Source of the DNA: a virus
Taxonomy: Duplodnaviria; Caudoviricetes
Length of the DNA stretch: 64,000 nt
Virus record (IMG/VR): IMGVR_UViG_3300020576_005257
Location: 160,001 to 224,000 of that record
Reading direction: 5' to 3' (one strand)
Positions 31,474-58,443 of the stretch are shown piece by piece (the first letter of the stretch is position 1; each line of letters starts with the position of its first letter). Under the pieces are notes generated by a model. That model saw only the letters and a list, made by a program, of their open reading frames with translations, was not told where the DNA came from and ran no database searches. A program made the translations under genes and the position numbers.

Positions 31474-33854
31474 TAAAAATTACTCCTGTTGTACCCAAAT
31501 GTATTAGTATCTAGTTCTGATCTATCGAAATAGAAACTGCTACCATCTCTGTCTTCTTTATCTTGAAGCATCAGTGTTTTCATTGTAGATCTGAACATAT
31601 CTTCATCATTAGGAACCTGAATGACCCCCAATCTCTCAAAAGTCTTATTATTTTCAGGGTAAGGGTTTTCGTAATACTGGAAAATGGCCCACATAGTCAT
31701 TAACCAGTTATCTATATAGTGTTCTTCCCCACCAGAATATTTAGTAGTTCTCTTGGTTTCTCCTTTGATTTTGAAGTTAACAAACTGTTTTTTGTAATCT
31801 TCTCTGTGTAAAGGAATCCTAATTAAATCTTTTTGGAACTTGTTTTTAAGCATATCAACAAGATATGGCTTAACCTGAATTGAAATATCCTCTTCAGTTA
31901 TGGGATCAGGGACTTTAATTGATTTATTAAACGGCAGTTGTAAAAGTTTTGAATGAAGTTGTAGATCAGTTCTTCGATTAGCCACAGTAATTAGATCTTC
32001 CCATTGCTTCATTCCAGACCCAAGATCCACTACAATAAGTTCTGGGTCAAAAACCTCTACTAGTTTTTCAATTTCCTCAATAGCAAAGGTATAAGTCATT
32101 TCGCTGGGCGGAACTTCTACATGATAAAGATGTCTGGCAGTTTTATTAATAGGATCATATTGGGCAAGTAAAATATTTGTACCTGCTTGAACTTTATCCC
32201 AGTCAACTGTTAAGAAGACAGGTAAATTTGGATTTCTATACTTAGAACTTGGCTCCCAATCTTCTGAGAACACACTTTCAATATCTTCTAACCTGAAAAC
32301 ACAATTATCAGCCTGAGTGACTTGCAGTAAATACTCAGTCTTCCAGATCTCGTCTGGAACTGATAACCTCTCCTCCTCAACCATTTCCTCAGTATAATCT
32401 GGGTTTTGATCAATTGGGACTTTTATTACGGTCTCTTTTTTAGTGGGCTCTAGAAGATCAATTTTCTTGTAATAATAACCATCTGCTCGGTTCAGAGTTC
32501 CTGCAATATAGCATCTAATCTTATCTCTACGAGTAAGGTCACCTCGCATAATAGGAATAAGAACTCGCCAATCTTCGTCAGAGAATCCCTGAGACTCGTC
32601 CAAAATACAAATATCAGCTGTGATACCTCTTAATTTATCAGGAGCAACACCATTGACACCAAGAATATGTCCCTCAATAAATGATCCAGTAATAAAAGAT
32701 CTAAGTGGAGGTGTTGTTGTATTTCCTACAGGACTCTTGAAACCTTGTAGAAGAGGATTAGCCGCAATCCAGTCATCTAAAACATCAAAGAACTCTGTAA
32801 TTTGAACAGATGATGGTGCAAAGAGATGTATTTTTTTATTTTGTTGCGTTACAGCATGCCACAACGCAATAACAATAAAGGAGAAACTATTGTGAATTAT
32901 GGTATTATTGGCAACAAAATTAGTGTCTGGGTGCCCTACACATAACTCATAAACATCTTTGAGTCCTGCGTCTTTCTTATTTACAACTAAATCCCATCTA
33001 CGACTACTTTTAGTTTCAAATACTTCTACATCTGCATCTAGGATAACACCCAGAAAAAGATTACGCTCTAACTCTTCATCTATGCGTAAAATCCCATCTT
33101 TTGTAACTCTGGAATATATTTCAAAACGATATAAAAGATGTTGAACATCAAATGCGAGATTTTTGTTAAAAAATGATAAAGTAATATTCTGATTTTTATG
33201 GTCAAATCTACCATAATAAGAGAATAAAGCCTTTAAATAAAGATGTAAACAATAGTTATTGTAGTTAAAAATTTCATCAGGAATTCTGCTTTTATTAATT
33301 GTAGCTTCATAAGTTTGAAGGATTGTTTCCTCACTTACTTCGTTATCCCCCTCTGGAAATTTACTGGCTGCAAGTAATTCTTGTCCAATTCGTACATCCC
33401 CAGCAGGAATCCACCCCATTTTCCTTTCCAACACCATATGGTCTGTAGAAAGGGTTAAAGCTACCCCCGATTCAAGTCGAATACTAACACACAGTTTCTT
33501 TCCAGAATACTCCCACTCAGCAATACTGGACTCTACAATATTTTTCTCAAAATCAAAACAATATGTATTCTTTACTTTAGCAGCTTGATCTATACGAAGA
33601 GGTCTGCGGGTAGTAGAATCTATAACGTATGAGTTCCCTGCTGCTGACTTACCTCCACGACGATGTACACATACCCAAGTATCTCTCTTCTTGGAAGAAA
33701 GAACTATTCTTTGAGGATAATTGGCCTTAAATGCAGTAAAAGGAGGCCCAGGGTTGGGGCTCTTTAAAAATTGCTCAGCAAAACTAAGAGGACTACTCCT
33801 AGCTTTGATTAGCCTTTCTTTATCTTCTGGAGAAAGCTTATCAAACTCAAACAT
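31473..33854 (-). CDS. terL: Terminase large subunit with intein
   Basis: YPQ, RRGGK/S Walker A, LRG..ILDE Walker B, TVDWD nuclease motif. Confidence 0.93.
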   Translation of the reverse strand: MFEFDKLSPEDKERLIKARSSPLSFAEQFLKSPNPGPPFTAFKANYPQRIVLSSKKRDTWVCVHRRGGKSAAGNSYVIDSTTRRPLRIDQAAKVKNTYCFDFEKNIVESSIAEWEYSGKKLCVSIRLESGVALTLSTDHMVLERKMGWIPAGDVRIGQELLAASKFPEGDNEVSEETILQTYEATINKSRIPDEIFNYNNYCLHLYLKALFSYYGRFDHKNQNITLSFFNKNLAFDVQHLLYRFEIYSRVTKDGILRIDEELERNLFLGVILDADVEVFETKSSRRWDLVVNKKDAGLKDVYELCVGHPDTNFVANNTIIHNSFSFIVIALWHAVTQQNKKIHLFAPSSVQITEFFDVLDDWIAANPLLQGFKSPVGNTTTPPLRSFITGSFIEGHILGVNGVAPDKLRGITADICILDESQGFSDEDWRVLIPIMRGDLTRRDKIRCYIAGTLNRADGYYYKKIDLLEPTKKETVIKVPIDQNPDYTEEMVEEERLSVPDEIWKTEYLLQVTQADNCVFRLEDIESVFSEDWEPSSKYRNPNLPVFLTVDWDKVQAGTNILLAQYDPINKTARHLYHVEVPPSEMTYTFAIEEIEKLVEVFDPELIVVDLGSGMKQWEDLITVANRRTDLQLHSKLLQLPFNKSIKVPDPITEEDISIQVKPYLVDMLKNKFQKDLIRIPLHREDYKKQFVNFKIKGETKRTTKYSGGEEHYIDNWLMTMWAIFQYYENPYPENNKTFERLGVIQVPNDEDMFRSTMKTLMLQDKEDRDGSSFYFDRSELDTNTFGYNRSNF
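32889..33647 (-). mobile_element. Intein S70-N322 in terminase Walker A, with a degenerate LAGLIDADG remnant
   Basis: GK|SAAG..STDH..VYEL..NFVANNTIIHN|S; removal restores RRGGKSFSF. Confidence 0.9.
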
Positions 33855-36231: not shown

Positions 36232-39200
36232 ATGAATCCCCTAGATAATGGTATAGAAAATATAGATGATTTAGATTTAGGACAAGCCGCCCCCAGCCTA
36301 AATGTTATCAAAAACGTCCCAGTTAATGGGCAAGACACCAATGTCTTTTTCCGTGATATTGGTGGTAAAACTCCAGAAGTAGCTTCTAAGTTAATTGAGC
36401 TTGTTAATAGGAATAAGCTCTCTGGTGGCAAACAATCTCAACTTATTGCTGCTCATTTAGCTGAGAATGAGAAGTTCTTTGAAAGGGCTTTACTTCTTAA
36501 TTCTGTTGAGGCTGGAAGGATTGATGTTGGAGCAGCATTAAAATCTTTCTTTGCCAGTAAATTTACTGTAGCAGATGCCCAGAGAAGACATGGGTACGAA
36601 ATTGAAATACTCAGAGCTAAGGTTATTGCCTCAACAACAGGCATACCTCTCCATAAAAAAGCATTACAACAACACCAAGCATATTTAGCTGGAAATGGAC
36701 AACATCCTTTAGGAGAATTACGCAAATCACCCATTGACCCATATAAAAATACTAAGGGTTATTATCATATTGAAAGAGATAAAAATGGTAACAACGTCAT
36801 TTACCTTAACGATATCCAAGCTGGTGCTATGGTTGTTGATATGGACGGTGACGAACTTACTGCTACCATAGCTCGTAAGAGAGATAAAAGCGGGAATATC
36901 ATAGAAGAGTTTATGATTCCTGTTAAAGAACCATTACTTCAAAATCTACCTGTTTTTCGTAATATTAACTACGAAAAAGGTGTTAATTTTGATAAAACCA
37001 AGCTATTTGGTAAGTTTACAGGCTTAAATTTCGGAGATCTGGGTGATAGGTTAGATCCAGACAGCATTAAATCAGCCTTTAGTAATGAGCTTTCTTCCAG
37101 AAAATACTCGGTTGTAGGTGATTTTTTAAGGGCTTATGATAAGCCAGAGTCCAGAGCAGGGTTTGGTGGGGTTCGTAATTTAGATTCAGTAAGAAAATAT
37201 ATAGCGGAAAAATCATTAGCAGCAAATGAAACTGGTATTTTCACTATAGCTCACGACCAAAGAGCTATAATTACCAACCTATATGAGTTGCATAGAATGA
37301 GAGAGGCTGAGCCTAATAAGTATTTAAGTATGCTTAAAGAGCAGCAAGAAGCAGCCAGAGCACAGCTAGAAATTCTAAGACGAGAACCAAATAAAACTGC
37401 TAAAGTAATTGGTGGTAAAGCTTTTGGTGTATATAATGCTCAAGGTGAGTTAATTCAAGCAAATGAAGAAACATTTTTAGAAAGTATGCTTCATTTTAGT
37501 GATGACCCCACTAAAAACCTTAATTTACGCAGAAAAACTGAAATTGACTACATATCCAAACATATGCTTGACGACCCAGAGCGATTAGACGATATTGAAG
37601 TCAGATCGTTGAAAGTTGGACGTAATGCTAATGCAATTTCTAGGTCCGATGCTTTAAGTATTGTTGACACCTTCAAAGAATATGTAAATGATCCTTTGTT
37701 AATGAGAGTTAAAACAATTACTCAGCTTAATGATAGAATTCACGCCTCATTAATTAGTTCTTTAGTATCAAAAACTGATGATGAAACCTTCTTTGATGTA
37801 ACTAACAGAGCTTTCTTAAATGTCAACATAGATGATATTCAGACTAGAAAAGGGGATATTGAACCACGTTCTCCTATTAATTATGGGGATTATTCTGGAA
37901 GAAGACAAGGAACCACTTTAGGTAGGTTATCACAGGTGCCTGTGGTTGATAATAAACCACTTATTCAATTCCAAGAACTCAATGGTTTTGAGGGTATTGT
38001 TACAGCTGATCATCTAAAAGATAATATTAACTATCGGCCAGCACCTTTAGCTATCACCATTAGAAATGCTCAAGGTCAAGTTGTAGCCCCTCAAATTGGC
38101 GGTAGTAATGGTAATGATATTACCCAAGTTAGTTTATTTGGTAATATAGCTAGCCCCTCAAATGGTGGTGTTGCTCTTCATAATCGCAGAGAATACCTAG
38201 CTACAGAGCTAGAAAGAAGACTCCAAGAACAGTATGGTAATACTAGACAATTTGGTGATACTTCTGGTGAACTTGAATTTCATACTATTCTACAAAGATT
38301 AACTCAAGATAGTGATACTAAACGACAAATTGCTTCTTCTTACGGTATTGATCCTAACAACATAGATCAGGTCAATTCGTTTAGCAGAACCATGCGTCAA
38401 AAGCTAGAAACTGCTGGTGCTGGAAGTGCTTTACACCAAGAAATAGCCTTAAAATACGATGTTACTCATAGGGGAGCTATGCTTACCACTATTCAGAAGC
38501 ATCTTAATGATATTATAAGCCATGCTAACGGTTTAACTGATGCAGCTGTAGAAATTGATCCTAATACAGGGTATATTAAGGCTGCTAATCCTCTTGATGT
38601 TCGCAGAGTATCAGCAAGATATGGTCTTGATGTAAGAGGACAAAACCTCTCTCCAGAGGTAAAAACCGACACCATTATGCAAGCTCTGCACAGTTTTGGT
38701 GGTTTTATTAGTAAAAATACATCTAGTGGTTCTGATAGATATATGCAGATGGCTTTTGGATCTGCTCCCGGTGATATTAGAACCGTTGGAATGGATCTAA
38801 GATATTTTACACCTTTAGAGCAAGCTAAACGACAAACAGACATTCAAAGACAAATGGCTGGGGGTATTAGGCTTGGTAAAGCTCGTATGGTGTTGGCTGA
38901 TACTGAAATTCCTTTAGAATATTTCAGAATGACTGATCCAAATGCTTCTATGGGTCTAAAAAGACCTGATGAAGGTGTGATTTTAATGTCTCGTAGTTTT
39001 AGAGACAGATCTATTGAGCAGATTAAAACTAAACTACAAATAGGTCCCACTTTGACCCAAGATAAATTAGGTGGGTCTATGGAAGATTATGTTGCCTATA
39101 TGTTAGGTGACAGACAGCTTGCTAATGGAAGAAGATTAACTAGACTGGAAGAACAACATCTTCGTACTAAATTCCAAAAAGAATTTATGGGTATGTGGGA

Positions 39201-40014
39201 TAAGAAGCAGATAGGTGGTAATACTATTTATCATCTTAACGAAAAGGGCATGGATACTACTTTAAACAGAGTATTTAAAATGGGTTCTCTTTTCGGTGAT
39301 AAAGCAGTTGTTCACACAGTAGATGATATGAGAGATGCAGAAGGCAAATTAATTGATGTCTTGATGCATATTAACCAATCTAGATCGCGTGGTAATGAAA
39401 TTCCCAGATATCAACAGGTACTCCAAACAGCTATTAATGAAGGAAGACTTAGTATTGATGATTTGGGAGAAGAATTTAGAGCTGGAGCCAGAGGTGGTCT
39501 TATTAATTTTGAAGAGGTCTTTGAAAAACACGGACACGACCAAGATACCTTTCTTTCCAGAATTAAAACAGGCTTTATTGATCCACTAGAAAAAGTTCAA
39601 CAAAATATTACGTTAACTGATCGTGGGGCAACTCAGGCTTTTAGTGGTTTAGTGGCAGAAACAGATGATCTATTTGCTGCTGGTAACTACGGTGATGTTT
39701 ATAAGAGCTTTAAGGAAACTAATTTAACTAGTAGAACTCTCGGTAGACCCAAATTGCTTGGTAAAATTGCTAATGCGTTAGACGATGAATTTGGCAATAA
39801 TATTGCTGGTATAGGGGCACAGTTTATTTTCCATGCCATGGGTTCTTTTGCCAAACAAATGTCAGAAGCTAATGTGGTTGGTGCAGGAATTAAAGAAAGT
39901 TTTAGTGCTGCTGAAATAATAAACTCTTCCAAGCAAGTTGTCCGTGGTGGACGAGAAGCTGGAAGAGCTTTACAGGATAGCCTAATGAATGAGGCTGGGA
40001 TACCTAAACTTTAA
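36232..40014 (+). CDS. Single-chain two-barrel (DPBB) RNA polymerase with permuted domain order, probably virion-packaged
   Basis: IYLNDIQAGAMVVDMDGD (D203-D207); PDEGVILMSRS (913); FKMGSLFGDKAVV (K1016, K1024); EGKLIDVLMHINQSRSRGN. Confidence 0.8.
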   Translation: MNPLDNGIENIDDLDLGQAAPSLNVIKNVPVNGQDTNVFFRDIGGKTPEVASKLIELVNRNKLSGGKQSQLIAAHLAENEKFFERALLLNSVEAGRIDVGAALKSFFASKFTVADAQRRHGYEIEILRAKVIASTTGIPLHKKALQQHQAYLAGNGQHPLGELRKSPIDPYKNTKGYYHIERDKNGNNVIYLNDIQAGAMVVDMDGDELTATIARKRDKSGNIIEEFMIPVKEPLLQNLPVFRNINYEKGVNFDKTKLFGKFTGLNFGDLGDRLDPDSIKSAFSNELSSRKYSVVGDFLRAYDKPESRAGFGGVRNLDSVRKYIAEKSLAANETGIFTIAHDQRAIITNLYELHRMREAEPNKYLSMLKEQQEAARAQLEILRREPNKTAKVIGGKAFGVYNAQGELIQANEETFLESMLHFSDDPTKNLNLRRKTEIDYISKHMLDDPERLDDIEVRSLKVGRNANAISRSDALSIVDTFKEYVNDPLLMRVKTITQLNDRIHASLISSLVSKTDDETFFDVTNRAFLNVNIDDIQTRKGDIEPRSPINYGDYSGRRQGTTLGRLSQVPVVDNKPLIQFQELNGFEGIVTADHLKDNINYRPAPLAITIRNAQGQVVAPQIGGSNGNDITQVSLFGNIASPSNGGVALHNRREYLATELERRLQEQYGNTRQFGDTSGELEFHTILQRLTQDSDTKRQIASSYGIDPNNIDQVNSFSRTMRQKLETAGAGSALHQEIALKYDVTHRGAMLTTIQKHLNDIISHANGLTDAAVEIDPNTGYIKAANPLDVRRVSARYGLDVRGQNLSPEVKTDTIMQALHSFGGFISKNTSSGSDRYMQMAFGSAPGDIRTVGMDLRYFTPLEQAKRQTDIQRQMAGGIRLGKARMVLADTEIPLEYFRMTDPNASMGLKRPDEGVILMSRSFRDRSIEQIKTKLQIGPTLTQDKLGGSMEDYVAYMLGDRQLANGRRLTRLEEQHLRTKFQKEFMGMWDKKQIGGNTIYHLNEKGMDTTLNRVFKMGSLFGDKAVVHTVDDMRDAEGKLIDVLMHINQSRSRGNEIPRYQQVLQTAINEGRLSIDDLGEEFRAGARGGLINFEEVFEKHGHDQDTFLSRIKTGFIDPLEKVQQNITLTDRGATQAFSGLVAETDDLFAAGNYGDVYKSFKETNLTSRTLGRPKLLGKIANALDDEFGNNIAGIGAQFIFHAMGSFAKQMSEANVVGAGIKESFSAAEIINSSKQVVRGGREAGRALQDSLMNEAGIPKL

Positions 40015-47797: not shown

Positions 47798-48028
47798 ATG
47801 AAAATCTCACCTATCGTTCTCATCATCACAGCATGTGTCATCATGGTCGGCTCTTGGACTATATTGAAACTTCAGTATCAGGTATACGAAAAGACTGCCT
47901 ACACAGAAGGCTACACACAAGCACTCAAGGACATCCGCTCGTCATTCAAAGGATCTGTCCCTGCTGAGGTGGAGTACAAAGGCAAAGCATTATTAGCTGG
48001 TGCTGATGCTACCAAACTCGCTCTCTAG
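47798..48028 (+). CDS. Small membrane-anchored protein
   Basis: MKISPIVLIITACVIM; start reassigned. Confidence 0.6.
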   Translation: MKISPIVLIITACVIMVGSWTILKLQYQVYEKTAYTEGYTQALKDIRSSFKGSVPAEVEYKGKALLAGADATKLAL

Positions 48029-48056
48029 TCTCTCGTCACACACATAGGTAACTACT

Positions 48057-48191
48057 ATGAAATTCGCTCGTAACAAAACCAAGTCTCGTAATGCTCGCCG
48101 CTACTACCGTGGTGAAACGACCGCTCGTAATCACAAGCCTATCCGCAAGGACAGACTTCACAACCACAACACAGGAGTCTGCACAGCATGA
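48057..48191 (+). CDS. 44-aa Arg/Lys-rich peptide
   Basis: MKFARNKTKSRNARRYYRG..; ATGA overlap with the next ORF; not in the ORF track. Confidence 0.5.
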   Translation: MKFARNKTKSRNARRYYRGETTARNHKPIRKDRLHNHNTGVCTA

Positions 48192-48394
48192 TGTCCTGGC
48201 TCTATGACCAAGCATCTCCAACTACATCCAACCTTTTAAAGGCTGGGTACACGTTGGCAGAAGTCAACAAAATCAGATGCAGTGAAGGTCGCACCTGTAC
48301 GGGGTGTAATCAACCCATTCACTGGTCTCGGTACAACGAAACGTTGTGTCCCAACTGTCTCTCTGAGGAATACGCACAGCAATGCTCGGCGTAG
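48188..48394 (+). CDS. Small zinc-ribbon protein
   Basis: CTGC..CPNC. Confidence 0.6.
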   Translation: MMSWLYDQASPTTSNLLKAGYTLAEVNKIRCSEGRTCTGCNQPIHWSRYNETLCPNCLSEEYAQQCSA

Positions 48395-48455
48395 CTCTCA
48401 TCGCCATCGGACTCCTCTTCGGAGGGGTCTACTACTCTTGTCTCGGTAAACACTC

Positions 48456-48713
48456 ATGAAAGTTCCCGCATTCTTCGGCTCAGCACTACGTGCTCCTTCC
48501 CACATCATCTCCACACTTGCTATCAAGCAACAGGAGATCAAGTCTCAACCAAGCCAAACAGCAATGGCTCTCGACCGCATGGAGAAACTCCAAGCAAGGG
48601 TCAACGAAACCAAGCTCACTCTGGATGAAGCCAAGGACGCAGTTACTCGTGCTCAACTGAGTTACGATACGGCTGTCCAAAACCTGGCTATCTTCCGGAA
48701 TTCGATCCGCTAA
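48456..48713 (+). CDS. Coiled-coil hypothetical protein
   Basis: Followed by a terminator. Confidence 0.65.
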   Translation: MKVPAFFGSALRAPSHIISTLAIKQQEIKSQPSQTAMALDRMEKLQARVNETKLTLDEAKDAVTRAQLSYDTAVQNLAIFRNSIR

Positions 48714-48719
48714 CAAAAT

Positions 48720-48760
48720 CCTACTACCTGGTACTAACTGGGTAGTAGGTAAAATTTTTT
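48720..48760 (+). terminator. Intrinsic terminator
   Basis: CCTACTACCTGGT/ACTGGGTAGTAGG followed by a T run. Confidence 0.65.
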
Positions 48761-48933
48761 CTCGTCCGACCGATATGTGGCATACCTCTCCGTAAAGGGG
48801 AGGATGGATGGTATGACCTACAAGCTGAAGCTACTCGCTTCGCTCGTCGGAGACCTGCGGTAGGTTGGGGGAGAGGGGAGTCTTGGACCTACCATTAGAC
48901 TCTCCCTTAGTCTAAAATCAATCATGGGTATTT

Positions 48934-49026
48934 ATGCAACTAATCCTGCTGTTCCTAATCTTCGTCGTCGTTCCGGCTTTACTGATCGGACTCGTCGTCC
49001 ATCTACTGGACAAATGGCAGATCTAG
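48934..49026 (+). CDS. 30-aa single-TM peptide
   Basis: MQLILLFLIFVVVPALLIGLVVHLLDKWQI; not in the ORF track. Confidence 0.55.
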   Translation: MQLILLFLIFVVVPALLIGLVVHLLDKWQI

Positions 49027-49688
49027 ATCTGCCAGGAGCCACCTTGTTCACCAAGGTTCCCCCGAAGGGGGTGGCTCGGGGCCACGAAGTGGCCCACATA
49101 AAGAACAGCACACTTGCTTTCTTTACTCTCTTATTCTATACAGGGAGTTTCTTTACTTCACCTATGGGTGAGTCAATTACTGCTCCTTCAGGAGATGTTA
49201 ATTGTTACTCATGGTCGAAAACCTCTGGTTTTCTAGACCTTTCCCATTCTGAGACTTCACTAAAAAATCCCTCTGTCTAAAATAATTTATTTGAGCCTAG
49301 GGGTCTATGTTAAGTCTCTCTCATGTAACCCTTAATAGCCCCCAATCCGGGGGGTGTTAATTGTTACAACACTTGAAAAAGTACCTTTTTCACCTAGTTT
49401 GACTCATCAACTAGGCTTTTTGCTCTCTCTGTACTAGTCTTCTGGTTTACCCATAGATCAATTACTCCTCCCATGGGGGGGATAAAAACAATGATCTCTT
49501 CCAGAATACAAGTACAAACTCTACCTATGTGCAACCTTTAGGTTGCACGAGAAAGAACTAACCACGTATGTGAGTTGGTAACTTCACTAAGTTAGCTTTC
49601 TTTCTCCCTACTGGAAATATAGACTTCATGTCTTGTTTCCCTCTACACACTCTATTCTATTCTCTCTCTTCTCTTTCTCCTTTCATCT

Positions 49689-50075
49689 ATGCCCCGTATC
49701 TACTGGGCTACCTATTCCAAACTCTCTCACAAAACTATGAAATACTCTGATCTCCGTCCTGGTGATACTCTCACCTATGCTACCTACGTCTCTCGTGTTG
49801 ATTACCTCGACATCCCCAAGTATTGGATGGAGTCTTCAACACTTCGAACTACCAACCTATGGGGTAGTATGGTCAGCACTACATATATTGAAGTTGCTGA
49901 TAACCTTCCTTCTGACATTCTCATGGTTCGTCGTAATGACAAACCAATCTATGTCAAGGGTCTACCTTATCCACTTCCCATTCCCAAACCTAAAGGTGAC
50001 ATCCGCAAACGGCTTGATGCTCACCGTGTCCTTAAGTCTTCTTCTACAAAGACAAAGGGATACTGGCATCTATGA
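49689..50075 (+). CDS. Hypothetical protein
   Basis: ORF with regional codon style. Confidence 0.6.
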   Translation: MPRIYWATYSKLSHKTMKYSDLRPGDTLTYATYVSRVDYLDIPKYWMESSTLRTTNLWGSMVSTTYIEVADNLPSDILMVRRNDKPIYVKGLPYPLPIPKPKGDIRKRLDAHRVLKSSSTKTKGYWHL

Positions 50076-50273
50076 AGTACTCTTCCAATTCTTTGGATTA
50101 GTCTTCAACAACATAGTGAAAAAAATCAACTATGGGTATATTTCAGACCCATAGCTTTTCACTATTTCTCATCCTTCCAGGTTGTGCATTACAAATGCTT
50201 CTACAACCACTCTCTCTAGGTCACGGAGGTACCTTTACTTGGGGCTAGGTTCCACTTAGCCCCACTCTCACTC

Positions 50274-50609
50274 ATGTACAACTTTGGTCAATTCATGGGG
50301 CACCTTGGTGTCCTCATCTCTCGTATTTTCACCGAAGCATATCGCCAATCTCAGTTCACTGAATTGGAGGATGCTGTTACTGGTAGAAAACCCAAACCTA
50401 CCCTTCAGGTAGTTAACACTGACTACGGCACTATCACCGTTAAATACGGCGATGAGCAAGTAGTCCTTGAACGTGTACGTCGTACTGACTCTTGGCAACC
50501 CATCGGGATGTTCCAAGGGGAAGTAGGCTACCTACGACCTGGCAAACTACCAATCCCTGGAAGGGATGCTGCCATCTGCTGGGCTAAATCCTACTTAGGT
50601 GCAGCCTAG
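50274..50609 (+). CDS. Hypothetical protein
   Basis: ORF with regional codon style. Confidence 0.65.
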   Translation: MYNFGQFMGHLGVLISRIFTEAYRQSQFTELEDAVTGRKPKPTLQVVNTDYGTITVKYGDEQVVLERVRRTDSWQPIGMFQGEVGYLRPGKLPIPGRDAAICWAKSYLGAA

Positions 50610-50631
50610 TCTCACCTGGAGTCTCACACCT

Positions 50632-50856
50632 ATGATGTTCCTCATCTCACTCATGCCATTCTTGGCAATCAACTTCTTCACTGTACTCTGTCTCATGACA
50701 GGGGACTACTCATCTGCAAGGGGTTATTTCATGACCTCCTTGCCATTCCTCTCCTTCGTTATCTTGGTTCCATTCTTCCACACCTTGTGGAGACGGAACC
50801 TTAAGCTCCTCAAAGAGCTTAAAGTCAAACAAGGAGGAGATAATGATCTCCTCTAA
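50632..50856 (+). CDS. Two-TM membrane protein
   Basis: Hydrophobic; GGAG upstream of ATG 50632. Confidence 0.6.
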   Translation: MMFLISLMPFLAINFFTVLCLMTGDYSSARGYFMTSLPFLSFVILVPFFHTLWRRNLKLLKELKVKQGGDNDLL

Positions 50857-51424
50857 CAGCACTGAATCTCTCTTCCCAGAGGACTTCCCTAATGTGTATC
50901 GCATTGGCATCACTGGACACCGACCACGGGGGTTACTTTCAGTACCCAACCATGGTTATGTGGACTATGCCTACTGCAATACCAAACTCCTTGAGTTCAT
51001 GCGGTCAACTATGTTCCCCATGATACTCAACAAATACCCAGATCCTGTCTGTATCTCAGGCATGGCTCTGGGTGCTGATCAAGCTTACATGCAAGTTGCT
51101 CAAGAGCTAGGATTCAAGACTGTTGCTGTTGTACCCTACCCGGAACAACCCAACATCTGGCCTAAAGCTGCCCAGGAACACTATCACCAACTGTGTGCTA
51201 ATGCCACAGAAGTGATTACAGTGTTTCCTTCAGGCGAAGCTGGCCTTCTTGATTTCCGTCAAATGCTCTTTATACGCGACAACCGTCTTGTTGACCGATG
51301 CACCAATATGGTTGCACTACACAATGGCCTACCTTCTGGTACTGGTCATACTGTAGGCTATGCTCACCAACAAGGCAAACCTGTCGCCAACTTCTGGAAG
51401 CTATGGAGACAATATCTCAAATGA
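50843..51424 (+). CDS. YspA/DUF1273 SLOG-family protein
   Basis: ITGHRP, ISGMALGADQ, RDNRLVD, SGTGHTV. Confidence 0.85.
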   Translation: MISSNSTESLFPEDFPNVYRIGITGHRPRGLLSVPNHGYVDYAYCNTKLLEFMRSTMFPMILNKYPDPVCISGMALGADQAYMQVAQELGFKTVAVVPYPEQPNIWPKAAQEHYHQLCANATEVITVFPSGEAGLLDFRQMLFIRDNRLVDRCTNMVALHNGLPSGTGHTVGYAHQQGKPVANFWKLWRQYLK

Positions 51425-51744
51425 AGAAAACTCACCCTACTCTTACCAGTCACCTCAAAGATTTTGAAGTCAATATCAAAACTTTTGAGGAGGCAGTCGG
51501 TACGTCTGCCGATATCACTGGTTATACGCTCAAAATGCGTACCCATTTTCACACTCTGCATGAGAAGGGCTTTATAAGCCCTGAACTTTATGCCAAGTTC
51601 AACAAGCATCTTGATTCCATCAATGATACTCTCCATGATCTTGGTCACGAAGCCTTCATCGTTTACGATTCTCTCACTGAGGAACAACTGTTCCTTGTAC
51701 AACTCACTCAGAACTCAGTTCCACCTGAGTTCATTGATCGTTAG
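51421..51744 (+). CDS. Hypothetical protein
   Basis: ATGA overlap with the SLOG gene. Confidence 0.65.
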   Translation: MKKTHPTLTSHLKDFEVNIKTFEEAVGTSADITGYTLKMRTHFHTLHEKGFISPELYAKFNKHLDSINDTLHDLGHEAFIVYDSLTEEQLFLVQLTQNSVPPEFIDR

Positions 51745-51826
51745 CAAGCATTCGCTTGCCATGTCCTAGCACTCCAAAGGAAGTGCTTACCCTAGCTATG
51801 CTAGGGGTTGTCTCACTAGTAACATG
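51735..51826 (+). promoter_or_regulatory. Three-hairpin leader, copy A
   Basis: TGATCGTT..3 hairpins..ACTAGTAACATG. Confidence 0.55.
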
Positions 51827-52465
51827 CAACACGTTCGATATGGTACAGCTCTGCTGACCCTTCCTACAATTCCTGCTCCCACTTCTGGTGGTGAGCCTCT
51901 ACAACATCCTGTCGTTCGGCATCTTCTTGCCGGACGTATTGACGATGCAATCGTTGGTATTCGAGAGCTGGGTCTTACCCAAGCTCGCCATGCTAATGGT
52001 ACCACTGTGTACTCTGGTGAAGGAATTGAAATCCTTCACACCACAATTGCATTGTCAGCTGAACTCAAACCTGACACATTCTCCCTAGACATCAACGACC
52101 GCTGTGTCATTAATGACAAACAGGGACGGTCTATGGACTGGGACTGCGATGGTGATCCCATTCAACTTATCCTCTTCAAGGAATTAGTTGATGGGGAAAT
52201 TATCACCAAAGCTATTCACGTCAAATTTCCAGCCCCCAAACTTCCACCTGTGTGGAAGATGGTTCCTCTGCCAGAACCTGTTCTCAAAGGTCTTTCCAAA
52301 GCCAAGGCAACTTCATTGATTAATGAAGGTCCTCCAGTTCCTGACTGGATTGCTGCTATGAAAAAGACTTTTACTCCACAGCCTATTGGCACCGTCACCA
52401 TTAGATGGTGGAACCATATCATGTCTCTTTATCATCAAGCATTTCTTAATGCTTCTAACAACTGA
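51824..52465 (+). CDS. Split two-barrel RNA polymerase, DxDGD-containing subunit
   Basis: VINDKQGRSMDWDCDGD (D107-D111)..GEII..VKFP..PIGTVTI aligns with the 36232 protein. Confidence 0.75.
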   Translation: MQHVRYGTALLTLPTIPAPTSGGEPLQHPVVRHLLAGRIDDAIVGIRELGLTQARHANGTTVYSGEGIEILHTTIALSAELKPDTFSLDINDRCVINDKQGRSMDWDCDGDPIQLILFKELVDGEIITKAIHVKFPAPKLPPVWKMVPLPEPVLKGLSKAKATSLINEGPPVPDWIAAMKKTFTPQPIGTVTIRWWNHIMSLYHQAFLNASNN

Positions 52466-52563
52466 TCGTTGCTCTCTTAGAGCACTATTCAAAAGCTCCA
52501 ACGTCGGTTGGACTTCCCGTCGGATGCTAGTCCGATAACTCACGCCTGGTTACTAATAACATG
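52463..52563 (+). promoter_or_regulatory. Three-hairpin leader, copy B
   Basis: TGATCGTT..3 hairpins..ACTAATAACATG. Confidence 0.55.
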
Positions 52564-54342
52564 AACCTCAGTCTGTTCAAATCAATTGTTTCTCCTTTGT
52601 CACAGGCTTTCCGTGACGACCTTGAAGGTCGCACTATGAAAGCCGCCCGTAAGGGCGAAGGAGCTGAACGTCCTCTCATCTTCGACCTCCCAGTCGAATC
52701 AATGGATCCAATTACTGCCGTATTCTATGGTAGTCGTGGAGCCATCTCCCAATCTGCCAATCTTGGCTATTCCTGGGATGAGGTGGAACTTGCGGCCAAC
52801 GGCCATATGCAATTCACCGAAGCCCGTAAACACAAAGATCCTAATCCAACCCGTCAGGCTTGGACTGATGATCCTGTTCAGAGTGATTATTCACTCGTTG
52901 CTTGGCTCATCAAAGGGGGCTACTTGCAAGTTCAAGAACTTGCTGCCACCCGTAAAGGTGTTCCACCTGCTATCTCTGTGTCTCTCTTCAATCCAGCTAC
53001 TGGAAAACATTCGGCATTCGTCTGGAAGAAGGATATGGGTGGTGATCACGTCGGTTTCTCAACCGTTCTGTATCCCGCCTATGTCTACGAACCTTCCACT
53101 GGAGAAGGCCGTGTAATGAGTCCTCTCGAACACTTGTCACTTTACGTGACTCGTCACTATGGTTGCTCTTGCAACATCACTACTCTGGGCTATGTCTCAG
53201 CCATCTTCAAAGGTGGCGGAGCTTATGCCCTTGAGTCATGCCTCAAGAAGTTCGTTGAACTTTTTGGCGATGTTGTCCCATCTACCATCACAGATGGTAG
53301 GCACACACCCTACAAGAATGCGAAGTTCTTCGCTTCTCGTACTGTTGTTGTGGACCATAGCTCCTTCCCCAGTTTCATGGGTAAGGAAACCAGCATTGAT
53401 GTAATGATGCGTATTACCGCCCAAGCTTCCAAAGCTTTTGGTGGTATCCATTATCCATCAACTGGTAGTCGTCCTTCTCTCCGCAAGCATTTCCTTGCTG
53501 GCGAGAATCGTTTCCCAGAGTTCTGCTCTGGTATGAGCGAAGCTCATCGACCTGGCCGCAATCGTTCTCTGCTTGTTCGCACTCTGCGTACCAGCAATAT
53601 GAAGGTTGCACTTGTGGTCACTGATTCCCTTCAGTGCTACATCACTCCCACAGGTATCGAGAAATCAAAACCTGAAATTGATACCTTCCTTCCACAGGTA
53701 TCATTCGAGCCAGTTGAAAACTGGCCTATGCTTGAACTCTCCAGTTGGTCTGGTAAGACCACTACTGTTTGGGTTTCTCCAAACCCTAAACAAGAGTCCA
53801 AGCGTGTTGGCAAGCTCCTTGACCAAGAGGGGTCTCGTTTCGAGCCCCGTGAGGTTGGACAATGGACTACTGAAGATGGTACTCCCATCGACGTTCTCTA
53901 CTCCACTGCTGAAGCTGAAGACAAAAAGCTCATGGCTTTCTTTCTCAGCAAAGCCACACCTCAGACCATCATTGGTCCAAAGGGTGAACAGATCAAAACT
54001 TATGTTTTTGATCATCACCTATTCCGTTCCGGTGTCGCATCCGAAAACATTCAACCACGTTTCTTGAAACAGTGGACTGTTGAAAGTTTCACAGGCAAGC
54101 TCCTTGCTTGTGTACTTCAGGATGAAGACCTTCGTTTCACAACCCGGAACAACTTCCAGATGCTAAGAGCTAAAGCTCTTTATGAGTCAGCAGAACTGCT
54201 TGCTCATCAACCAGAGGGTACTGAAGTGGAGCTTCTCAAAGAACTCCCATCTGACTTGTCAGATGAACAACTTCAAGATGAAGACACTCACGAAGCACTT
54301 ACTGTGCCAATCGGTGAGATTGTCGGCATCGAAGTCCTCTGA
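52561..54342 (+). CDS. Split two-barrel RNA polymerase, beta-like subunit
   Basis: DDLEGRTMKAARKG; RVGKLLDQEGSR (K418, R426); EDGTPIDVLY. Confidence 0.7.
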   Translation: MNLSLFKSIVSPLSQAFRDDLEGRTMKAARKGEGAERPLIFDLPVESMDPITAVFYGSRGAISQSANLGYSWDEVELAANGHMQFTEARKHKDPNPTRQAWTDDPVQSDYSLVAWLIKGGYLQVQELAATRKGVPPAISVSLFNPATGKHSAFVWKKDMGGDHVGFSTVLYPAYVYEPSTGEGRVMSPLEHLSLYVTRHYGCSCNITTLGYVSAIFKGGGAYALESCLKKFVELFGDVVPSTITDGRHTPYKNAKFFASRTVVVDHSSFPSFMGKETSIDVMMRITAQASKAFGGIHYPSTGSRPSLRKHFLAGENRFPEFCSGMSEAHRPGRNRSLLVRTLRTSNMKVALVVTDSLQCYITPTGIEKSKPEIDTFLPQVSFEPVENWPMLELSSWSGKTTTVWVSPNPKQESKRVGKLLDQEGSRFEPREVGQWTTEDGTPIDVLYSTAEAEDKKLMAFFLSKATPQTIIGPKGEQIKTYVFDHHLFRSGVASENIQPRFLKQWTVESFTGKLLACVLQDEDLRFTTRNNFQMLRAKALYESAELLAHQPEGTEVELLKELPSDLSDEQLQDEDTHEALTVPIGEIVGIEVL

Positions 54343-54356
54343 CATCTGTCACAATT

Positions 54357-54395
54357 ACCCCCGTAGGTGCAAGCCTACGGGGGTGTACATTTTTT
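54357..54395 (+). terminator. Intrinsic terminator
   Basis: ACCCCCGTAGG/CCTACGGGGGT followed by a T run. Confidence 0.7.
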
Positions 54396-54690
54396 CTTGA
54401 AACTATTCACGGTCCTTCTGGCATTCGCCTCCAGGAACATTCATAGTTTCACTAGGTTAGACTTCTAACATTTAAAATGTTTTAGACTTCTTGGAATACT
54501 GTTTCCTAGAGGTAGAAAAATCAATTTTGGGTAACAGCCTGAGCTATGCTCTCGTCACTTACCAATACTTTTTTTTGGCTAGCCCTACCACTGGGTGTAG
54601 ACAATCTCAAGTACTGGTATAGACTACGAGTAAAATCAATCTCGGGTTCTGTGAAACCCAAATTCAAAACAGAGGTCTAACTTCAAAACA

Positions 54691-55563
54691 ATGATTACCA
54701 AATCACCTTCCGCCACTCTCAATCTGAGTGCTCTCCGTACTGCTAACGAAGCAGTCGTTCTGGAGAACTTCACGATTGACCTTACTCTCTCCACTCCTGA
54801 GCCAATCGCAGAAGGTCCATTCAAGGGCCTTCCTCAAGTCGTTGGCGAAGGCATCTCCTTCCGGGGCACCGGAGGCGTCGAAAACCGTGTGTATCCCACA
54901 CGCATCGAAGTCCGAGCAGTCGAGTCTTCCAAGAATCTTCTTGAAGAAGACGAAGACGCTGAGGACCTCATCGGCTTCATCGGTCAACGAGTGACCACAG
55001 TTCATTCTGTCCTCTTCGGACGCAAGATGATCCCCGATCCCGATGCCAAGGTTGGCAAGCCCAAGATGATCTTGAGCCCTGACGAAGTGGAACTCCAGAC
55101 CATGCGTACTGGTCTTTCGTTCAACAAGAACTCGGCCAATCCCAACATGCGTTCTGTGTCTTTCATGCGAAAGAACACCAACTTGTTCATCCCACCAGGT
55201 GACAAGGCCGCAGCTGCTGAAGCAGCCGACTCCGAATCCAAGGCTTCTGCTACTAGCGAAGTTGGTAAGCGAGTCCTCAATGCGTTCAATGCAATTGAGC
55301 GAGCTGTTCGTGACTCCTTTGAGGGCATTGACCTCAAACGATTCGAACAGGGCGGCGATCTCGCTCATCTCAGCAAGGAAGTCAAGGACGAATTCCGTGC
55401 TTACGACACAGCTGTTCGCAAAGTCGCAGCTCATCTCAAGAATTGGAAGCGTCCTTCAACTGATGCCAAGCCGAGTGTCACAAACACTCCAGCTCAGGCT
55501 AAGGTTGAAAAGACCGAGCCAATGTCCATTGACGATCTGGAGGCAGAAGTTAAGTCTTCTTGA
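54691..55563 (+). CDS. Hypothetical protein, probably highly expressed
   Basis: 290 aa, strongly biased codons, followed by a hairpin at ~55577-55607. Confidence 0.8.
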   Translation: MITKSPSATLNLSALRTANEAVVLENFTIDLTLSTPEPIAEGPFKGLPQVVGEGISFRGTGGVENRVYPTRIEVRAVESSKNLLEEDEDAEDLIGFIGQRVTTVHSVLFGRKMIPDPDAKVGKPKMILSPDEVELQTMRTGLSFNKNSANPNMRSVSFMRKNTNLFIPPGDKAAAAEAADSESKASATSEVGKRVLNAFNAIERAVRDSFEGIDLKRFEQGGDLAHLSKEVKDEFRAYDTAVRKVAAHLKNWKRPSTDAKPSVTNTPAQAKVEKTEPMSIDDLEAEVKSS

Positions 55564-55630
55564 TTCCAGCTTCATCATCCCCCTAGGTGTAACAGCCTAG
55601 GGGGTATCAGATAAGCAACCGGAGAAAACT

Positions 55631-56080
55631 ATGAGTTTCTTTATGCTCCTAGTCGCCACTACGCTGGCGATCTTCATCCTTATGGCTTCCATCAAAGCCA
55701 TCCTTACCGCTGTCAGAATGTGGCGTAATGGGGCACAAGTGTCCTCGACTGCCATGTTTATGTCAGCAGCAGCTGGAATCCTTCTGGTTTCCATGATGTT
55801 TACCAACCCAGTAACCTGGGCTGTACTCGGTATCACCGCGATGTACACCATTGCAATCGACATCTGTCGTGGCATTCTGTACAACCTCGCTGAATGGGAA
55901 ACTGAGTATGCTGCTGCTCCAATCACCTCGACTTTCGTAGGTCTTTGGAACAAAGGCAAGACTTGGAACGCAGACCGTAAGGTCAAACGTGCCGAGAAGC
56001 TTCCCAACACCGAGTATCAACAGGATCCTGGTGTTCCAGGTGCTGTCATCCAAGGTACTCCAGAACCTGTAGGAGCGTAA
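55631..56080 (+). CDS. Membrane protein
   Basis: GGAG SD; about 3 TM segments. Confidence 0.7.
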   Translation: MSFFMLLVATTLAIFILMASIKAILTAVRMWRNGAQVSSTAMFMSAAAGILLVSMMFTNPVTWAVLGITAMYTIAIDICRGILYNLAEWETEYAAAPITSTFVGLWNKGKTWNADRKVKRAEKLPNTEYQQDPGVPGAVIQGTPEPVGA

Positions 56081-56086
56081 TCTTAA

Positions 56087-56482
56087 TTGATTACACTCTT
56101 CCTCTTCATCAATGCCCTTGCACTTTTAACTATTGCGTATAACGCAGCAGTGTGCATGGTCTTCTCTGCCAAACAACAAGACTTGGTAGGAGCCCTTATT
56201 CAAGGTCTCGTATCAGCCTTCTCTCTCCTGCTTGCAGGATGTTGGATTATGCTAATGTTTGCTGGTCTTACATACCTGTTGCCTGGCGACTTTCTGCTAC
56301 TTGGAGTCAACATTGTGTTGGCTATCTGGTATTCAATAATCGCCAGCTCTGTCAAGGAGGAGATGGGGTATTCTGCCCCAATTTGTGCATTCGTCACAAA
56401 TAAAGTACTGCCTGGTATAGCCAGCTGGGGTGACAAACGTCGCACCACTAAGGCAATCTCAGCCGACCCTGTTGCAGTTTAA
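56087..56482 (+). CDS. Membrane protein, possibly a paralogue of the upstream gene
   Basis: About 3 TM; YSAPICAFV vs YAAAPITSTFV; ends DPVAV vs EPVGA. Confidence 0.7.
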   Translation: MITLFLFINALALLTIAYNAAVCMVFSAKQQDLVGALIQGLVSAFSLLLAGCWIMLMFAGLTYLLPGDFLLLGVNIVLAIWYSIIASSVKEEMGYSAPICAFVTNKVLPGIASWGDKRRTTKAISADPVAV

Positions 56483-56547
56483 TCTGCAACCAAAAATCAG
56501 CTGTGGGTGTAACAACCCACAGCTCTACTCAAACGGAGTCTCACCAA

Positions 56548-56832
56548 ATGTTTGTTTACATCATCATCGGCCTTGCTACAGTTAGTGTAGCATTCGAGCT
56601 ATTCTTGTTCTCCAAGTTCCCAGCTCTTCTCAAATTTTGCAAGCAGTTCCCACTTGTAGGTATTGGCTTGTCCATGTTCCTCAGTGTATTCCTAGCTGGA
56701 TTGTTCCATGCTGGAGGAATGGCAGTGGCTGCTGCTGCTATCATTTCCACTCTTGCAACCGCTATCTATTACTCGGTTGCTAATGGTTGCCGTGCAATCA
56801 TGGATCGTTTTTTCTCTTGGCGTGAGTGCTGA
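56548..56832 (+). CDS. Membrane protein
   Basis: GGAG upstream of ATG 56548; hydrophobic. Confidence 0.7.
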   Translation: MFVYIIIGLATVSVAFELFLFSKFPALLKFCKQFPLVGIGLSMFLSVFLAGLFHAGGMAVAAAAIISTLATAIYYSVANGCRAIMDRFFSWREC

Positions 56833-56868
56833 TAAGCACCATGGCTCATGGCCATGTGTGTAAAACAA

Positions 56869-56901
56869 CGGGGTCCCTTTGAAACTTGGGACCCCTATTT
56901 T
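56869..56901 (+). terminator. Intrinsic terminator
   Basis: GGGGTCCC/GGGACCCC followed by TATTTT. Confidence 0.6.
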
Positions 56902-57928
56902 CCCCCGCCCCACTCACGTCCAACCCCAATTAACTGGGGTTATTTCCCGGCCACCACCGGGAATGTTCCTGAGTTGGCTAAGGCAGCTAAGTGAGACTCG
57001 CTGCTGAAAGCCAACTTTGGATAACTTAAATCAATTTCGGGTTCTACCAATTACTGGAAATATCTGGTATTATGGCCCGACTGACGGAGGATGATTAACT
57101 ATCATGAAGCTCACCTAAGACCACCCGTAAATGAGAAAAAACCGTTAAGAGCGGTATGATATACTGAGATTTTTTGTAGTCTACCTCATAGGTGTTAAAA
57201 GCATCTATGGGGTAATTCCCAATTTGACCGACTGACATTAGTTTCCTTGATGCTACTTGTTAGTGGTTAAAAACCAAAAATGGGTTGAACAACAACAGGG
57301 TTAAACCTGGTTCAAACCAAACAACACAAACATGCAGATCTTCCAGAATTTCTGCATCATAGTGGATAAGAGGGGATCACTCACCTCAAAAGAGAACACC
57401 AAATAAGAACCAGCAAAATACTGGTTCGCTAATTCGACAGTTAAGTCCAACATGAAAATCGGAGTTTCATCCATTCTCCTTCTCGCCATGTATAAACTTT
57501 GTCGAATATAAGCAAATCTCAATCACGATCTATCTGGTATGATCGGTGAAAGAAAAACCCCAGGGTGACGATCAGCAATGGTTGTCACCCCTAAACACAT
57601 GAAGGGATTCTGTATAAGAATAACCTATGGCTAAGGCCTTCAAAGCCCGAATAATGAGTGAGTAGGAGAAACCCCTACTCCTTTCACCTAAAGTTTTTCA
57701 GCCCGAGTAATGGTACAATCTCGGGTTCTGTTAATAAAAGTTGGGAAGCAATTCTTAACAAAATAGGACGGAGTAAATGAAAGAGCGAAATAGGGTCAAA
57801 CCTAATAGTAACTCAAATGCAACAAGGAATATAGCTGGATTACAAGGCATTCCTGTACCAATTGATATGAGCAATTATGTCAATTAGCAAACAGTGTTTA
57901 CATTGTTTTACTTGTAGTCCACCAATGT

Positions 57929-58009
57929 GTGAGGGTACCTCAGCGGTCAGAGGACCATCTCCGTCAAACGAGAAGGAAGTCATAGGTTCGAATCCTATTC
58001 CTTGCACCA
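57929..58009 (+). tRNA. tRNA-like gene with an enlarged anticodon arm
   Basis: GTGAGGG/TCCTTGC, CCTC/GAGG D arm, ATAGG-TTCGAAT-CCTAT, ACCA. Confidence 0.7.
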
Positions 58010-58044
58010 ATCTCCTTGCTTTCCTTTTAAGGAATCAAAACGTC

Positions 58045-58443
58045 ATGCTACAACTTACAGCTCAGAATGTTGAAAATATCTTTCTTGATTGTTTGTTCAA
58101 GGAAAATGAACCAACCGATGGTTACACCTTAGCTCAAGGTATCATGACTAATGTAGGATTCCATCCTGAAAGATTGAAGTCTCATCGTAATGAGATTGCT
58201 CAACTTTTCTCTCAACTACCTGACGAATTCATGCATGATAAAGGAAAAGGAATGTCATTCCTTAATGCCTGTAATACTAAGGATGATGTCCAATGGGGAG
58301 AACACCAAGATATGGAACAATTGTTCCTACTTGGTTTAGCTTCTAACCTTGTAACTCAACCATTTCCACGAGAACAATGGCATATGCTTCCTGGTAACGT
58401 TCCATACTACGTTGTGGATATATCCAGTGAGCTTGTCTCTTAA
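58045..58443 (+). CDS. Phage hypothetical protein
   Basis: AAGGA upstream of ATG 58045; MSFLNAC..QWGEH..MEQL. Confidence 0.75.
   Translation: MLQLTAQNVENIFLDCLFKENEPTDGYTLAQGIMTNVGFHPERLKSHRNEIAQLFSQLPDEFMHDKGKGMSFLNACNTKDDVQWGEHQDMEQLFLLGLASNLVTQPFPREQWHMLPGNVPYYVVDISSELVS

Follow-up and report, generated by a model that had tools for sequence, protein, structure and literature searches.

A probable compact polymerase encoded by two adjacent genes

The window analysed here is a 64,000-nucleotide (nt) stretch of the virus record IMGVR_UViG_3300020576_005257 (bases 160001-224000 of 234,927 bp; CheckV completeness 95%). Two adjacent genes on its plus strand, P0001 and P0002, are fairly likely to encode the halves of a compact (~800 amino acids, aa) two-barrel polymerase, most likely a DNA-dependent RNA polymerase (RNAP) made after infection. 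As judged from sequence profiles and structural models, the pair and a distant 1260-aa paralogue in the same window would represent an undescribed family of the two-barrel RNAP superfamily in which the order of the two cores is reversed. The virus is an uncultured giant myovirus, whose minus strand encodes the tail sheath, the major head protein, the portal and the terminase.

P0001 (51824..52465, + strand) and P0002 (52561..54342, + strand) encode 213 and 593 aa, respectively, or 806 aa together. The two open reading frames (ORFs) lie in different frames, 95 nt apart, and an in-frame stop at 52528 stands 5' of the P0002 ATG; they are therefore two genes, and a frameshift or read-through that would merge them is ruled out by that stop and the difference in frame. 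The original prediction of two ORFs with a total of about 806 aa was correct, exact in its coordinates, and the ORFs are indeed separate genes. P0001 carries a metal-binding loop, DWDCDGD (residues 105-111; the DxDGD core is at 107-111, nt 52142-52156, + strand), in a putative barrel that is followed by helices, the last of which is a long helix at 188-211. P0002 (all features on the + strand) begins with a helix that contains an invariant E22 and the motif DLEG..MK..RKG; further downstream are K418-x7-R426 with DGTPIDVL (residues 415-446, nt 53803-53898) and FRSGVASEN (residues 488-496).

Conserved and catalytic residues

Conservation was counted over about 95 sequences of 15-40% identity. 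In P0001, D107, D109, D111 and P136 are invariant across 95 relatives, G110 is near-invariant and K134 is invariant or nearly so. In P0002, E22 and K418 are invariant, while K455, R489, E495 and N496 are invariant or near-invariant. The family consensus reads G-K-L-x-D-x-x-G-x-K-F, with a K-x7-K spacing. The second basic position is Lys in most of the family and Arg426 in P0002, and this Arg is fixed across a nine-member subclade to which P0002 belongs, fused forms included.

Two sequence features of the two-barrel superfamily are seen in the pair. The DxDGD/DxDxD metal-binding loop is present in P0001, and the two basic residues of the second double-psi barrel (DPBB-B, the hybrid-binding barrel of beta) are found in P0002. 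When the family profiles were compared with single E. coli sequences using hhalign, the best match of the N-terminal profile was beta' 444-472 (NADFDGD; E 0.016), aligned to P0001 residues 91-119 such that D107/109/111 correspond to D460/462/464. The best match of the C-terminal profile was beta 1051-1100 (E 0.047), aligned to P0002 residues 402-449, with K418 equivalent to K1065, R426 to K1073, and DGTPIDVL to NGTPVDIVL of E. coli beta. Each of these E-values is weak by itself, but both alignments fall on the expected motif of the expected subunit. Two departures from the 1260-aa protein had been noted from the sequence and both were confirmed: the second Lys is replaced by Arg (R426), and the acidic motif of beta is altered, with DEGVILMS of the 1260-aa protein aligned to SLQCYITP and no acidic pair remaining.

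Predicted fold and subunit interaction

The AlphaFold2 model of a 787-aa fused relative, in which both halves form one chain, was built from a 98-sequence alignment and has a mean predicted local distance difference test (pLDDT) score of 91.7 and a predicted template modelling (pTM) score of 0.91. In every library searched, residues ~330-720 of this model match only the second-largest subunits of RNAPs (beta/Rpb2). Foldseek against the PDB returned 18 matches at E <=0.001, all of them RNAP chain B, the best being vaccinia Rpo132 (E 3.8e-5); BFVD returned RNAP beta homologues of poxvirus, baculovirus and giant virus; and the ESM Atlas returned clusters with Rpb2_6, Rpb2_3 and Rpb2_7, with ~395 residues aligned. 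Since the fold matches are confined to RNAP beta/Rpb2 chains, P0002 would be a strongly trimmed beta-type subunit.

The model of P0001 (pLDDT 89) shows weak fold matches to beta'-type barrels and no stronger ones. With P0001 alone, Foldseek against the PDB gave nothing at E <=0.001, a wide VIA search found no polymerase, and a protein-atlas feature search was uninformative (top score 0.81). By sequence, the PDB gave non-significant matches only, the best of them to gp96 of phage P23-45 at DFDGD (E 0.17 with the family profile), and this search found no solved structure of this polymerase family. The secondary structure of P0001 runs strand, strand, strand, short helix, DxDGD loop, strand, which we take to be the element order of the beta' barrel with a hairpin inserted after the loop. 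P0001 probably carries a minimal beta'-type barrel.

P0001 and P0002 are predicted to bind each other, as had been proposed: the modelled heterodimer reached an ipSAE score of 0.85 against 0.00 for the best control. A score of 0.85 is attained by 58 of 80 solved complexes and by 2 of 110 mismatched pairs. Contacts agreed between runs to at least 84%, with a partner pLDDT of at least 84. This outcome is to be expected of the halves of a split gene, and the prediction speaks for consistency rather than for affinity. The predicted interface includes P0001 residues 104-110 (the DxDGD loop) and P0002 residues 414-418, 426-432 and 358; Q358 occupies the position held by the acidic DE pair in the 1260-aa protein. 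The helices that flank the split (P0001 188-211 and the N-terminus of P0002 with E22) are candidates for the bridge helix and trigger loop, and their alignment with the archaeal subunit Rpo1N is weak. Going by this alignment and by a resemblance of motifs, the two helices may be the equivalents of the bridge helix and of the first part of the trigger loop, in which case the split would be analogous to the archaeal A'/A'' break.

Fused and split relatives

A word-indexed search found five relatives of P0002, of which the 787-aa and 866-aa proteins have a P0001-like N-terminus fused to the P0002-like part. P0001 matches these N-termini in BLASTP at E 4e-29 and 1e-27, respectively. When 1.8 billion cluster representatives were scanned with the family profile using HMMER, 113 proteins, metagenomic relatives of the pair, were recovered, 102 of them at E <=1e-10. 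Most of the 113 are single chains of about 750-1000 aa, and those looked up are nameless or labelled 'hypothetical protein'. Fused forms have the DxDGD loop near residue 110 and, after it, the beta-like module at ~330-720. Sequence and model data support the permuted order that had been proposed: the beta-like part comes second, opposite to what is described for known single-chain enzymes.

Two further loci encode the enzyme in two pieces. In L001 a 249-aa gene abuts a 601-aa gene, in L007 the N-terminal gene overlaps a 573-aa gene, and the split point in both is that of P0001/P0002. In a maximum-likelihood tree the three split forms make up a single clade (support 96/94) inside the fused forms, from which it follows that the gene split arose once and has been kept at ~40% protein identity. 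Both halves are intact in all three lineages. Comparison of these sequences supports the view that P0001 and P0002 are a genuine division, into two genes, of what is elsewhere a one-chain enzyme.

Matches were absent in a tblastn search of GenBank phages, and searches of IMG/VR and prokaryote genomes gave no further related loci. Pfam and PHROGs returned nothing meaningful for P0001, P0002 or the 1260-aa protein; Pfam gave scattered chance matches only for all 95 N-terminal segments of the family; and Pfam Rpb1/Rpb2 matched neither the proteins nor the genome.

The small-subunit gene of L007 is interrupted by an insert of ~900 nt (L007:2714-3623) with a gene for a 201-aa LAGLIDADG endonuclease. 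The insert sits exactly at DWDCDG|DP, and the reading frame resumes downstream with DPIHV.... Homing elements are typically placed in essential catalytic codons. No group I or II intron model of Rfam matched the insert; its probable identity as a self-splicing intron in the catalytic motif is deduced from the restored reading frame alone.

A distant 1260-aa paralogue

The 1260-aa protein is encoded at 36232..40014 (+ strand) and has the same order of motifs: DMDGD (203-207), K1016-x7-K1024 and EGKLIDVL. Pairwise comparison shows the relationship marginally at best. BLASTP of P0001 against the 1260-aa protein aligned the DxDGD stretch only (E 0.008 in a single comparison), BLASTP of P0002 gave nothing significant, the family profile missed the 1260-aa gene when the genome was searched with HMMER, and hhalign with a shallow 7-sequence profile reached only E 0.013 and a probability of 3%. 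The 98-sequence family profile, compared with a 3-sequence profile of the 1260-aa family, aligned over 488 columns with a probability of 97.2%, E 3.7e-11 and a score of 99.6, against scores of 17-28 for controls in which the target alignment was reversed or block-shuffled. A permissively extended alignment of P0001+P0002 with the 1260-aa protein is collinear end to end and pairs DxDGD, VG..T, DLEG/DIEV, K-x7-K/R with IDVL, and FRSG/FAAG. The original prediction of collinear paralogy is thereby upheld by profile-profile alignment, and every motif block that it had listed is paired. These comparisons support the split pair as a distant homologue of the 1260-aa protein.

Both types of gene are found on one scaffold of a 245-kb relative, about 16-20 kb apart. 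The 1260-aa gene is the divergent neighbour of the terminase cluster here and in two other genomes, and its product may be the packaged counterpart of the split enzyme. The terminase homologue of the 245-kb relative (L009:150-2519, 789 aa) has a Pfam intein-splicing match; an intein may also be present in the terminase ORF of the window (31473-33854), which at 793 aa is about as long.

Comparison with known polymerases

In QDE-1, crAss gp66 and P23-45 gp64/gp96 the connector runs from DPBB-B to DPBB-A, with the beta-like part first (PMC10770324), and a survey of jumbo phages describes YonO-like and phiKZ-like types only (PMC7824862). The family described here lacks the DPBB-B-before-DPBB-A arrangement of the single-chain RNAPs (YonO, QDE-1, crAss gp66 and gp64/gp96). 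A literature search, which was not exhaustive, turned up neither this family nor any single-chain enzyme with the beta'-type part first. Compared by hhalign with gp64 and gp96(1-1200), both family profiles aligned at the motif only (28-30 columns, E 0.0013-0.1, not significant); among the single-chain enzymes, this sequence comparison covered gp64 and gp96.

The closest parallel is the Thermus phage P23-45, where gp96 is a virion RNAP fused to the tape measure and gp64 is the non-virion RNAP (Chaban et al. 2024, PMC10770324; PDB 8H2M/8H2N). As in P23-45, a single phage encodes a pair of polymerases of the two-barrel type, here predicted ones, which have diverged very far but are closest to one another: the mutual hhalign comparison gives E 3.7e-11, and those with E. 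coli, gp64/gp96 and a third polymerase-like pair of the genome are not significant. Like the P23-45 pair, they have almost no sequence similarity to other RNAPs outside the DxDGD loop, and the enzymes are small (gp64 has 616 aa). Unlike the P23-45 single chains, which run from DPBB-B to DPBB-A, the enzyme here has its DxDGD part first and consists of two chains, and its beta-like module is nearer to multisubunit beta than to the YonO/QDE-1 clade. Moreover, gp96 is a virion RNAP; in the present phage a packaged enzyme is a possibility.

The non-virion multisubunit RNAPs of the jumbo phages phiKZ and AR9 (PDB 7OGP, 7S00) have 4-5 subunits, well over 2000 aa and recognisable beta/beta' segments. 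The pair described here, with two subunits, 806 aa and no Pfam Rpb1/Rpb2 signal, does not belong to that group. The alignment with archaeal Rpo1N (A')/Rpo1C (A'') is weak (root-mean-square deviation 6.5 A), and the downstream chain here runs into a beta-like module, not into the rest of beta' as in the archaeal enzyme. In comparison with E. coli RpoB/RpoC, the pair has about one quarter of the combined size, its beta'-like part comprises only ~300 residues and is placed first, and it has Arg for the second Lys and lacks the acidic ED pair.

Genomic neighbourhood and expression signals

The plus-strand block from 47.6 to 64 kb contains small unknown genes and long intergenic regions, and no structural genes. 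The G+C content is 46-48% at 48-57 kb, an island that covers the split genes and their neighbours, and 36-40% elsewhere in the genome. The upstream neighbour of P0001 (50843-51424) is SLOG/DprA-like (Pfam DNA_processg_A, E 1.3e-11). In relatives the equivalent place is taken by Macro, NADAR and DUF4326 genes, of a kind often seen in early regions devoted to counter-defence. Together with the terminator and the motif distribution described below, this gene content suggests an early or counter-defence role for the block around the split genes.

Both subunit genes have leaders of a common layout, with TGATCGTT, three hairpins and ACTA(G/A)TAAC before the ATG, and without a Shine-Dalgarno sequence. 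The P0001 leader (51735..51823, + strand) ends in ACTAGTAAC and has a fold z-score of -2.9; the 95-nt P0001-P0002 spacer (52466..52560, + strand) ends in ACTAATAAC and has a fold z-score of -2.2. Within the window, both leader end motifs are confined to these two sites. The relatives L001 and L007 have no spacer between the subunit genes. An Rfam search of the window from 47.4 to 58 kb gave no match at either leader. C/T-rich leaders without a Shine-Dalgarno sequence were also seen at many other genes of the island (48000-57000). A strong terminator-like hairpin of the intrinsic type (54356-54385, or 54356..54395 for the whole element, + strand; 13-bp stem with 8 GC pairs, and a T run) lies 14 nt past the P0002 stop.

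Two short sequences may mark different classes of promoter. The 235-kb genome has AAAATCAAYYNYGGGT at five places, each of them on the plus strand and within 48.9-57.0 kb (48916, 50124, 54519, 54634 and 57029), and the motif is a candidate for a class-specific promoter or regulatory site of the block. The nearest copy upstream of the split genes (50124..50139, + strand) would be the candidate promoter of a transcription unit spanning 50124-54395. CTCTATT(T/A) occurs at 2549, 16475, 17448, 21672, 36157 and 47503, and elsewhere in the genome. It lies 10-30 nt 5' of many large structural genes and 75 nt 5' of the 1260-aa gene, and is absent upstream of the split genes. This distribution makes CTCTATT a candidate late promoter; its overall enrichment is modest (22 found, 14.5 expected). 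Sigma-70-like promoters are not enriched in the region (24 found, 29 expected).

The third polymerase-like pair lies outside the window, at genome positions 50556-51812 and 52036-53469 (419 and ~476 aa), and has more canonical beta' motifs, RFPNLGP and HPDILKDCLQGDGDGD. Against the split-polymerase family, hhalign found no significant relation for it, with a best E of 0.005 at the lysine motif.

Within the ORF 57877-58443 there is a tRNA-like match to Rfam RF00005 (57929-58000, 30.4 bits), truncated where the searched sequence ended. A 30-nt string, CTCTATTAATATTGGATAAAAAGAATGAAG, occurs on the minus strand at genome positions 629 and 234927, that is, ~630 nt from the start and at the end of the contig. 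Such a repetition could come from a terminal repeat or from overlapping ends in the assembly, although the classification of the record is linear with no repeats at its ends.

Proposed mechanism and alternatives

Sequence homology and conservation, the fold of the beta-like module and the predicted heterodimer are what the analysis shows; from these we infer a mechanism that adds a barrel fold of the small subunit, catalysis, a template, a time of expression and a division of labour. The 213-aa protein would supply the Mg-binding DxDGD loop, probably on a minimal barrel of the beta' type, and after it a helix resembling the bridge helix. The 593-aa protein would supply a trimmed beta-type module whose barrel bears Lys418 and Arg426. 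The two chains would pack with the DxDGD loop facing the Lys418/Arg426 barrel to form one active site. The enzyme would come from an unannotated phage family with the beta'-like core before the beta-like core, a single chain in most of its members, and one subclade, this phage included, would have split it once, where two long helices meet.

The position of the genes and the distribution of the motifs would fit early production of the split enzyme and late production, perhaps with packaging, of the 1260-aa enzyme. As a third polymerase-like pair exists, the transcription programme may have three enzymes. More tentatively, and with the odds against it in its full form, this clade of uncultured jumbo myophages might carry out host-independent transcription with three two-barrel polymerases, two of them from an undescribed beta'-first (circularly permuted) lineage, with the present copy split again at the bridge-helix/trigger-loop junction as in archaeal A'/A''.

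The split enzyme could also be an active two-barrel polymerase that does not transcribe genes: a replication primase, an RNA-dependent RNA polymerase (RdRP), or the maker of a specific non-coding or anti-defence RNA. Next to the 1260-aa paralogue and the third, more canonical pair, three transcriptases are perhaps more than the phage needs, the split enzyme has no acidic beta motif, its neighbours are of the counter-defence type (SLOG here, Macro/NADAR in relatives), and RdRPs and PolD do belong to the two-barrel superfamily. We nevertheless regard such a role as unlikely, since the strong fold matches are all to beta of DNA-dependent RNAPs, including the fork and anchor parts (Rpb2_3, Rpb2_7), and not to QDE-1 or PolD, and the phage-encoded two-barrel enzymes described in the literature examined are DNA-dependent RNAPs.

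In another alternative, the roles of the two paralogues would be reversed or shared: the split enzyme would be packaged, or both would be non-virion enzymes and the 1260-aa protein otherwise employed. The packaging assignment of the 1260-aa protein is based on its position alone. That position, however, is beside the terminase/portal block in three genomes, the late-type CTCTATT stands upstream of the gene, and the block of the split genes is free of structural genes, so that reversed or shared roles appear quite improbable.

That the pair is a relic devoid of activity, or serves as a non-catalytic scaffold or decoy of beta-like build, is very improbable. In favour of it, the gene is split, the second basic residue is Arg in place of Lys, no acidic beta motif is left, and a barrel fold of the N-terminal part is only probable. 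On the other side, K418 and the aspartates of DxDGD are invariant in ~95 sequences of 15-40% identity, Arg426 is fixed in its nine-member subclade, fused forms too, the split is old with halves intact in three lineages, and in one relative a homing-endonuclease insert sits at the DxDGD codons.

Significance

Two-barrel RNAPs are the universal transcription enzymes of cells. How they evolved early on, and what the smallest core is that still functions, are questions on which this family bears. It comprises at least 113 clusters and, in reversed order, joins a ~400-residue beta-type module to only ~300 residues of the beta' type. Its natural one-chain and two-chain forms offer a small expressible system for finding which parts of beta' are needed in catalysis, and also inform the evolution of domain order and of subunit breaks. 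The family profile can be used to annotate proteins that are now labelled hypothetical. For the phages themselves, the finding would be a further example, besides P23-45, of a phage with two RNAPs that arose by duplication and diverged strongly, and it suggests that a so far unstudied group of jumbo phages uses several polymerases in its transcription programmes.

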